Virus record (IMG/VR): IMGVR_UViG_2718218171_000001
Strand: one strand, 5' to 3'
Source: a virus
Lineage: Duplodnaviria; Heunggongvirae; Uroviricota; Caudoviricetes
DNA length: 38,764 nucleotides
This document shows positions 29,032 to 29,714 of this stretch, one piece after another. A program made the position numbers and the translations under genes. Position 1 is the first letter of the stretch; every line of letters begins with the position of its first letter. The notes under the pieces are model-generated. The model saw only the letters and a list, made by a program, of their open reading frames with translations, did no database searches and was not told the DNA's origin.

Positions 29032-29059
29032 CCAGGATTCCCCTCACAGGTATTGCTGG

Positions 29060-29087
29060 TTGTAAGTCATAAATAGAGTGATAGAAT
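29060..29087 (+). promoter_or_regulatory. Candidate sigma70 promoter with extended -10 for the tail-cluster moron
   Basis: TTGTAA (29060-29065), 16-nt spacer, TGaTAGAAT (29079-29087); 36 bp upstream of ATG 29123. Confidence 0.4.
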
Positions 29088-29122
29088 TAATGCACATTTA
29101 GAAAAATGTTAATAGGCGAAAA

Positions 29123-29653
29123 ATGAAAGGCTATATCACAGCAAGTGTAATTCTTGGAGCAGCGGCTGTTTTTTCATCTCTCATAATCTCTGGCAACATC
29201 TCCTTTAAAGATGAACATATTATTCAGTTATCTGGAGGAGCCATAAAACTTGGTGATGTTTATAAAGAAAATAAATTGATAAGTGCAAAGATTATTTTTC
29301 CAGATAATCAGGGTGAACAGATTCTTGTTGTCGACGGCAATCCTGAAAACTTTAAGGAGGATTTTCAGGAGAAATTAAATAAAGTAATAAAAACTTTAAA
29401 TGCGTCAAAGAAAAAAGATGAAGAGAAAGTTAGCCTGGATAATTTAAGTGTTGTTGAAGAGTCTAAACTAGAGCTCGTTTCTGCGGTGCGTTACTCTGCT
29501 CAGTATGTTCCTATGTTTACTCTGACGCTGGACAAAAAAGAAATTACCATGCCTAAAAATACGGTAATATTTCCATTTGCCAGCGATGAAACAGCTAAGT
29601 ATTTAAATGAACAGCAGCAAAAGTATAAAGATTCGTTGTTTCTGACTCGCTAA
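29123..29653 (+). CDS. Moron: predicted membrane-anchored or secreted protein (176 aa), unknown function
   Basis: N-terminal hydrophobic segment MKGYITASVILGAAAVFSSLIISG; Lys/Glu-rich remainder; low-GC; own promoter and terminator; interrupts the tail gene cluster. Confidence 0.6.
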   Translation: MKGYITASVILGAAAVFSSLIISGNISFKDEHIIQLSGGAIKLGDVYKENKLISAKIIFPDNQGEQILVVDGNPENFKEDFQEKLNKVIKTLNASKKKDEEKVSLDNLSVVEESKLELVSAVRYSAQYVPMFTLTLDKKEITMPKNTVIFPFASDETAKYLNEQQQKYKDSLFLTR

Positions 29654-29671
29654 TTAATAAAATTCATTACA

Positions 29672-29704
29672 AGGCCACCTTCTAATAGGTGGCTTTTTAA
29701 TTTT
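29672..29704 (+). terminator. Rho-independent terminator after the moron
   Basis: Stem gccacct / aggtggc around loop tctaat, followed by TTTTTAATTTT. Confidence 0.75.
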
Positions 29705-29714
29705 CGGAGTATAT

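Follow-up and report, generated by a model that had tools for sequence, protein, structure and literature searches.

Morons, as the concept is summarised in a review (PMC3594210) after Juhala et al. 2000 and Cumby et al. 2012, are stretches of additional DNA separating genes that adjoin each other in related phages; they are recognised by a deviant base composition, by a promoter and a terminator of their own, and by expression from the repressed prophage. Among the closest described counterparts of the element analysed here is gp15 of phage HK97, a tail-operon moron adjoining the tape measure gene, whose product inserts in the inner membrane and prevents superinfection without blocking surface receptors (PMC3594210). 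In its account of the work of Cumby et al. 2012, that review describes gp15 as expressed from the prophage and as blocking genome entry at the inner membrane. A further exclusion protein is the lactococcal Sie2009, and two accounts (PMC3594210; PMC10883804) list Cor (phi80/N15), Llp (T5), Ltp (TP-J34), T4 Imm and P22 SieA as small envelope proteins stopping superinfecting phages at adsorption or DNA entry. We report here on a segment that lies between a tail tape measure gene and a Mu gpN-like gene (N) in 38,764 nucleotides (nt) of viral DNA (IMG/VR record IMGVR_UViG_2718218171_000001; hereafter, the window), and on the 176-amino-acid (aa) protein that the segment encodes. A sequence-only reading of the window had interpreted this segment as an autonomous expression cassette of low GC (guanine plus cytosine) content, composed of a promoter, a gene for a membrane-anchored protein and a terminator, and inserted inside the tail gene cluster.

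The window is the genome of an SfV/SfI/SfII-like temperate phage of Escherichia coli in which lambdoid early genes are combined with a contractile tail of the Mu type; at the DNA level it is matched best by SfI, SfII, SfV and numerous E. coli prophages. The tape measure gene (27199-29031, plus strand; PF10145, 1e-25; phrog_28 / phrog_17727 tape measure) and the Mu gpN-like DNA circularisation / baseplate hub gene (29715-31043, plus strand; PF07157 [DNA_circ_N], 6e-34; phrog_184 baseplate hub) are 683 base pairs (bp) apart (29032-29714), compared with 60 bp in phages SfII and SfV. On the two strands of this interval, the only open reading frame (ORF) reaching 40 aa is the 176-aa ORF at 29123-29653 (plus strand), and no ambiguous bases were found in 28500-30500. 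The ORF has a GC content of 0.348, compared with 0.513 in the tape measure gene and 0.562 in N; the interval as a whole has 0.344, with values along it falling to 0.30-0.39. Both the placement of the ORF and its compositional contrast with the tail genes are hence as the sequence-only reading had put them. With extra DNA between genes that are neighbours in relatives, and with a deviant base composition, the segment (29032-29704, plus strand) is by sequence comparison a moron, and it sits in a slot of polymorphic cargo that separates the tape measure gene of an SfV-like prophage from the gpN-like hub gene.

The polymorphism of the slot was surveyed in 5426 complete E. coli genomes, using a flanked 2-kilobase query and a query consisting of the cassette only. 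The flanked query matched 1096 genomes, 173 of which have the cassette with the 176-aa ORF, while the cassette alone was detected in 173-178 genomes (~3%); the agreement between these figures implies that, in E. coli, the cassette is found essentially only in the slot between tape measure and N. The 176-aa gene is missing from ~84% of the E. coli prophages with these flanks, as well as from SfI, SfII and SfV. In an evenly spaced sample of 60 records, about half of the slots were empty, about one sixth held the 176-aa cassette and another sixth other cargo, and the remainder presented the N side only, so that roughly a third of the sampled SfV-like prophages carry some cargo in the slot.

At least four unrelated cassettes occupy the slot elsewhere among E. 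coli prophages, giving slot lengths of 446-812 bp. One of them (84-85 genomes) is also present in the matching slot of phage SKA5, where a cassette of nearly equal length (684 bp) encodes an unrelated 170-aa protein whose N-terminal hydrophobic segment reads as a signal peptide. A membrane-anchored OB-fold protein of 148-150 aa (PF12869) is encoded on the opposite strand in 54-79 genomes, and the other two cassettes encode a 125-aa bPH_1 protein without export signal and a 225-aa hypothetical protein with a lipobox-like N-terminus. All slot cargos are low in GC (0.31-0.42), and an N-terminal export or anchor signal is present in four of the five cargo types, the 176-aa type included. Homology among slot variants breaks off over the final ~12 nt of the tape measure gene and picks up again at CGGAGT (position 29705 in the window), 10 nt before the ATG of N. 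No flanking direct repeats or terminal inverted repeats were detected around the segment, which speaks against a transposon-like insertion and makes exchange by recombination in the conserved flanks more likely than transposition.

The OB-fold cargo lends indirect support to superinfection exclusion, one of the functions suggested in the sequence-only reading. It matches PF12869 (3e-19) and phrog_8545, annotated as 'superinfection exclusion Sie-like' (1.5e-49); lactococcal Sie2009 also matches PF12869 (3.5e-11) and is linked to the OB-fold cargo by a BLASTP match (1e-6). On this sequence evidence the OB-fold cargo is a homologue of the exclusion protein Sie2009, and the homology would extend the family across Gram-positive and Gram-negative prophages. 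Copies of this cargo were located on the minus strand of loci L005 (864-1250), L006 (865-1311) and L008 (807-1259); the one in L005 has no N-terminal anchor and is possibly a truncated form.

The 176-aa protein matches PHROG 5485 over its full length (7e-108, 1-176 of 176), its only family match. This family has no assigned function and is a bare sequence cluster, with phrog_34391 as a fragment family; it is also matched by a member of the wider family from Pseudomonas (4e-14). No match was obtained in Pfam (E <= 0.1) or NCBIfam, searches of the PDB by sequence and by profile returned nothing below E 0.4, and 61 wider-family members compared with Pfam gave scattered single matches and no consistent family. 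A match to phrog_15137 'endonuclease' (E 0.01) was dismissed as a chance hit lacking conserved catalytic residues.

The N-terminal hydrophobic segment noted in the sequence-only reading is well supported: the 19-residue Kyte-Doolittle mean over residues 5-23 is 2.09, and an AlphaFold2 model built from a 61-sequence alignment (predicted local distance difference test 91.2; predicted template modelling [TM] score 0.76) places a helix at residues 2-23. In the model, this helix is followed by strands 32-36, 39-44, 46-58 and 67-72, helix 74-93, strands 114-126 and 132-143, and helix 149-171, defining an alpha/beta domain spanning residues ~30-172. Topology prediction across the family gave a uniform picture, with a single N-terminal hydrophobic segment in 59 of the 61 members, a second segment in none, and a charge bias toward an N-in/C-out orientation in 46. 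The protein has no cysteine, and a doubtful lipobox was seen in one of the 61 members. Conservation is as high in the anchor as in the domain, and S8, G12, S18, L20 and S23 are invariant in orthologues, which suggests that the N-terminal helix is retained as a membrane anchor rather than cleaved. The product is therefore predicted by the model to be a bitopic inner-membrane protein, whose single N-terminal helix would hold an alpha/beta domain of ~150 residues in the periplasm. Residues G39, L43, G44, Y47, E49, N93, Y124, P130 and L134 are conserved family-wide; since they comprise no obvious catalytic set, the periplasmic domain is probably a binding module.

The sole significant fold match was a protein annotated as 'Lipoprotein' from Pseudomonas phage ventosus (UniProt A0A2H4P829, BFVD model; Foldseek E 2.2e-6, probability 1.00, TM 0.56/0.66). 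Like the 176-aa protein, the ventosus protein is phage-encoded and its annotation implies an envelope location, but the two share 12% sequence identity and the annotation implies a lipid anchor, not a membrane helix. No function for the ventosus protein was encountered in the searched literature.

An exhaustive profile search outlined a family of 78 clusters at 50% identity, nearly all of 166-200 aa, mostly from Enterobacterales and with some distant members in Pseudomonas; near homologues were restricted to Enterobacteriaceae. Among 89 fetched loci bearing the gene, 84 have it between tape measure and N, and the other five comprise four contig-end truncations and one remnant. Orthologues in the tape-measure/N slot were identified in Leclercia (53% identity), Edwardsiella (42%), Mangrovibacter (38%), Lonsdalea (34%, with two more small ORFs before N) and a metagenomic contig (31%); overall identities, including a Lelliottia prophage remnant, range from 31 to 59%. 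The identity to the window drops together for cargo (53 to 31%), N (72 to 47%) and the Mu gpP-like hub gene P (82 to 51%), the latter assigned by Pfam and located at 31040-32119 in the window. A parallel co-variation with the tape measure was rejected: in the Leclercia loci L009 and L014 the cargo is ~53% identical in both, with the tape measure at 39% and 78%, and across loci the tape measure spans 78-25% independently. The cargo has a GC content of 0.35-0.42 in all orthologous loci and contrasts with its neighbours everywhere.

Because orthologues of 31-59% identity share the slot and have diverged alongside the tail genes, the gene cannot be regarded as a recent insertion. The word 'inserted' in the sequence-only reading, taken as a recent event, does not withstand the presence of such orthologues in the same slot of Leclercia, Edwardsiella, Mangrovibacter and Lonsdalea and in the Lelliottia remnant. 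On this comparative evidence, the gene is a long-term accessory resident of the slot that has been lost or replaced in many lineages. Disruption of the ORF is rare: of 76 full-length copies in E. coli viral contigs, 75 are intact, and the copies represent 27 DNA alleles and 11 protein variants. Among these copies, 12 polymorphic codons show synonymous changes only and 8 show replacements; between orthologues synonymous divergence (dS) is saturated, with nonsynonymous divergence (dN) of 0.13-0.56. Both observations indicate purifying selection, with dN/dS far below 1.

Several loci of the family present additional peculiarities. The slot of Lonsdalea quercina (L105/L106 4001-5330) has three ORFs, encoding the family member, a 119-aa Cys/His-rich protein and a third product of 83 aa (L105) or 113 aa (L106) with a hydrophobic stretch near its C-terminus. 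In Lelliottia amnigena (L013 5809-6525) the family member lies beside icd, with a 31-aa tape measure remnant on its 5' side and its own terminator kept; this locus is a decayed prophage whose sole retained gene is the family member. Distant members were also found directly after the N antiterminator gene of a lambdoid pL operon (L108 4001-4576) and beside a small serine recombinase in Pseudomonas-type integrated elements or islands (L098 5001-5534, L100 5001-5531). A 180-aa neighbour in the Pseudomonas locus, considered as a paralogue, proved not to be related. A tblastn search of 50,697 deposited phage genomes detected no copy of the gene, and single distant members used as queries against viral contigs gave no matches.

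The expression signals of the cassette were examined against both shuffled sequence and the other slot variants. A sigma70-like promoter candidate is present at 29060-29087 (plus strand), with a -35 element TTGTAA (29060-29065), a 16-nt spacer, a TG dinucleotide (29079-29080) and a -10 element TAGAAT (29082-29087), amounting in a consensus scan to 9 of 12 consensus matches plus the extended -10 TG. Downstream of it, a Shine-Dalgarno-like AGG (29114-29116, plus strand) can be read 6 nt ahead of the ATG, with purine-rich motifs at the matching position in orthologues. A generic scan returned two promoter-like sites in the region against 3.3 expected from shuffles, and hence no excess; at a similar distance from the ATG, the score of the candidate was reached by 16/500 to 30/500 spacer shuffles (3-6%). 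The match is thus moderately above chance, which is suggestive but not decisive. Comparable sites lie 33-41 nt 5' of the start codon in the window, in locus L096 and in the SKA5, PH-domain and 225-aa cassettes.

The intrinsic terminator at 29671-29706 (plus strand) consists of a 10-bp stem (29671-29696) followed by a run of uridines (U-run) and ends at the ribosome-binding site of N. Its hairpin (-17 kcal/mol, z = -6.7) was not equalled in stability by any of 200 shuffles. Hairpins with a U-run occur at the terminator position in all orthologous cassettes, with different stem sequences, and every plus-strand cassette of the slot likewise has its own, with differing stems, just 5' of the N ribosome-binding site; in the minus-strand OB cassettes the hairpin is on the tape-measure side instead. 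A low-scoring Rfam match to Phe_leader at 29620-29702 (25 bits against a gathering threshold of 55, E 0.12) overlaps the terminator hairpin and is most likely due to chance. The empty slot of SfII (L002 1636-1695) and SfV (L003 1636-1695) is a 60-bp AT-rich spacer that also contains a strong hairpin and U-run, CCCACTCCGGTGGG (-14.8 kcal/mol), placing a terminator within the late tail operon with no cargo to terminate. This empty-slot terminator may be what a lost cassette left behind, or it may function as an attenuator.

Since empty slots carry the hairpin too, the terminator is best seen as a property of the junction, and not as proof of an autonomous unit. The sequence-only reading was therefore right about the existence and strength of the terminator, which is nonetheless not cargo-specific, and about the presence of an extended -10 site, for which 'near-consensus' was generous given the frequency of equal matches in shuffles; no such site is recognisable in several orthologues. 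Its broader notion of an autonomous accessory cassette is supported by the 60-bp slot of relatives, the deviant GC content, the plausible promoter candidate, the terminator of the cassette and a gene under purifying selection with a product directed to the envelope, with the reservations that empty slots have a terminator too and that the promoter match is moderate.

The comparison with described exclusion systems reveals a shared architecture and no shared sequence family. Like HK97 gp15, the cassette is a low-GC, self-contained tail-operon unit next to the tape measure gene, with a terminator just before the ribosome-binding site of the next gene; it encodes an N-terminal membrane helix and is absent from close relatives. 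The two differ in that gp15 is 62 aa long and matches YebO (PF13974, 1.2e-8), while the 176-aa protein has a predicted folded periplasmic domain, and in that gp15 lies upstream of the tape measure gene of a siphovirus, whereas the 176-aa gene lies downstream of it in a Mu-type contractile tail module. Sie2009, from Lactococcus phage Tuc2009, is similar in size (173 aa), prophage-encoded, and endowed with a hydrophobic amino terminus and an extracytoplasmic domain. Its gene, however, belongs to the lysogeny module, with the integrase gene on one side and the repressor gene on the other, and not to the tail operon, and its OB fold differs from the alpha/beta sandwich modelled here, leaving only the N-terminal anchor in common. 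Unlike Cor, Llp and Ltp, the 176-aa protein has no lipobox and hence is no lipoprotein, and it shows no Pfam relationship to entry-blockers. P22 SieA and T4 Imm are multi-pass proteins, in contrast to the single-pass anchor predicted here. SNIPE, a membrane-bound nuclease described in PMC13190303 as cleaving phage DNA during injection, was set aside as a different kind of system. The RefSeq entry WP_000679482 was absent from the searched literature. By sequence, the 176-aa protein falls outside the YebO/gp15, Sie2009/PF12869, Cor/Llp/Ltp lipoprotein and PADLOC families.

Given this architecture, we tentatively consider superinfection exclusion at the inner membrane the most likely function of the 176-aa protein. 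In the lysogen, the protein would be made from its own promoter and be held at the periplasmic side of the inner membrane, where it would stop incoming phage tails from passing their DNA across that membrane, as described for HK97 gp15 and Sie2009. Exclusion is favoured because the architecture matches that of described exclusion proteins, in particular the tape-measure-adjacent moron gp15 of HK97, because a Sie2009 homologue fills this very position in other E. coli prophages, and because the short tether would put the domain where tail-tip and tape measure proteins open the DNA channel. SfI, SfII and SfV are isolated, infective phages, and the absence of the gene from them suggests that it is dispensable for virion production. 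A possible, and more doubtful, extension is that the 176-aa protein founds a new superinfection-exclusion family of ~78 clusters, with a periplasmic fold without solved relative, that has been kept over long divergence at the tape-measure/hub junction of Mu-type tails; this junction would then be a dedicated hot-spot for swapping anti-entry or envelope cassettes, including the Gram-negative Sie2009 homologue.

A number of observations weigh against exclusion. Neither by sequence nor by profile does the 176-aa protein resemble HK97 gp15/YebO (no Pfam match; hhalign probability 0.2% with family profile A2) or Sie2009 (no PF12869 match; hhalign probability 0.3%), and a search of PADLOC-DB 2.0.0 yielded 0 families at E <= 1. 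Sharing of the slot with a Sie homologue is circumstantial, and the bPH_1 protein is a cargo of the same slot without export signal. No convincing promoter was found in the Leclercia, Lelliottia or Edwardsiella orthologues, and expression in lysogens could be low because H-NS typically targets AT-rich DNA in E. coli. It is also possible that the N-terminal segment is cleaved as a signal peptide, and distant members of the family (~24-29% identity) occupy other accessory positions of mobile elements.

The alternative that best survives, which we nevertheless regard as somewhat unlikely, is that the protein serves lysogenic conversion or envelope fitness, independently of phage entry, and is expressed from the prophage for the benefit of the host. 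It could, for instance, act in the periplasm as a binding or immunity protein that counters colicins or type VI effectors, confer resistance to stress or serum, or modulate an envelope machine. The anatomy of the cassette and the predicted periplasmic location would fit this role equally well, known moron functions include those of lambda Lom and SopE (PMC3594210), and a conversion-type Acyl_transf_3 gene is present in the same prophage. Survival of the gene next to icd after the decay of the Lelliottia prophage also hints at a value for the host. Yet searches of Pfam, NCBIfam and the PDB revealed no similarity to a known immunity, virulence or stress family, and the tight and long-lasting linkage to one tail module in six genera is more easily explained by a phage-directed function; a Sie2009 homologue also occurs as an alternative slot occupant.

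Position in the late operon, in the same orientation, raises the further possibility that the gene is expressed by read-through and acts, in the lytic cycle, at the producing cell's own membrane, for instance by stopping progeny from ejecting DNA into lysing cells and debris or tuning lysis. The weak support for a promoter in several orthologues and the divergence in step with the downstream baseplate genes would agree with such a role. It is made unlikely by the terminator that closes each plus-strand cassette, by the orientation of the OB-fold cargo, which late read-through cannot express from the opposite strand, and by the lack of the gene in SfI, SfII and SfV. Improbable, too, is a post-entry anti-phage defence without entry block, in which the protein would act as a membrane-disrupting abortive-infection effector or as a sensor of phage proteins. 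Defence genes are frequent in prophage accessory slots, single-gene membrane proteins exist among known defence systems, and a defence-like island with a methylase and an ATPase is encoded by the same prophage. Nonetheless, PADLOC returned no match, the predicted location of the bulk of the protein outside the cytoplasm would leave it unable to sense cytoplasmic phage components, and a single short anchor without a second hydrophobic segment would make a poor pore former. Finally, although the position between tape measure and hub is kept in several genera, a structural or assembly component of the tail is very improbable given the predicted membrane anchor and periplasmic orientation and the absence of the gene from most flanked E. 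coli prophages and from SfI, SfII and SfV, and so is a non-functional hitch-hiking ORF given 75 of 76 intact copies, a dN/dS far below 1 and a confident predicted fold.

Outside the tail module, the window has other regions of unusual composition. A second low-GC island (0.33-0.41; 11677-14511, minus strand) encodes a C5 DNA methylase (PF00145; PADLOC MTase_II, 6.8e-91) and a 596-aa AAA_15/AAA_21 ATPase (PADLOC HEC-04, 1.9e-36; ATPase-Toprim, 1e-24), and looks like a defence-type moron in the same prophage. The low-GC (0.30-0.33) Acyl_transf_3 gene (36342-37466, minus strand) adjoins the integrase gene (37607-38764), and its position and family would fit a serotype-conversion module of the O-antigen acetylase type. 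The apparent GC content of 0.17 at 958-2301 is an artefact of 719 scattered N characters, which also make the C-terminal half of a 627-aa DUF2303 ORF (1227-3110, minus strand) unreadable.

Tail-operon morons for membrane proteins have been known since HK97 gp15, and the element described here is of the expected type. Three aspects may be new, no description of them having been found in a limited literature search: the multi-allelic nature of the cargo slot at the tape-measure/hub junction of SfV-like phages, the presence among its alleles of a Gram-negative Sie2009 homologue, and the co-divergence of the 176-aa family with the tail module at a persistently low GC content. By influencing which phages can infect a strain, prophage morons are relevant to phage therapy and to E. 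coli population structure. As the 176-aa family has no Pfam or NCBIfam model, the assignment of one function would cover a whole uncharacterised family.

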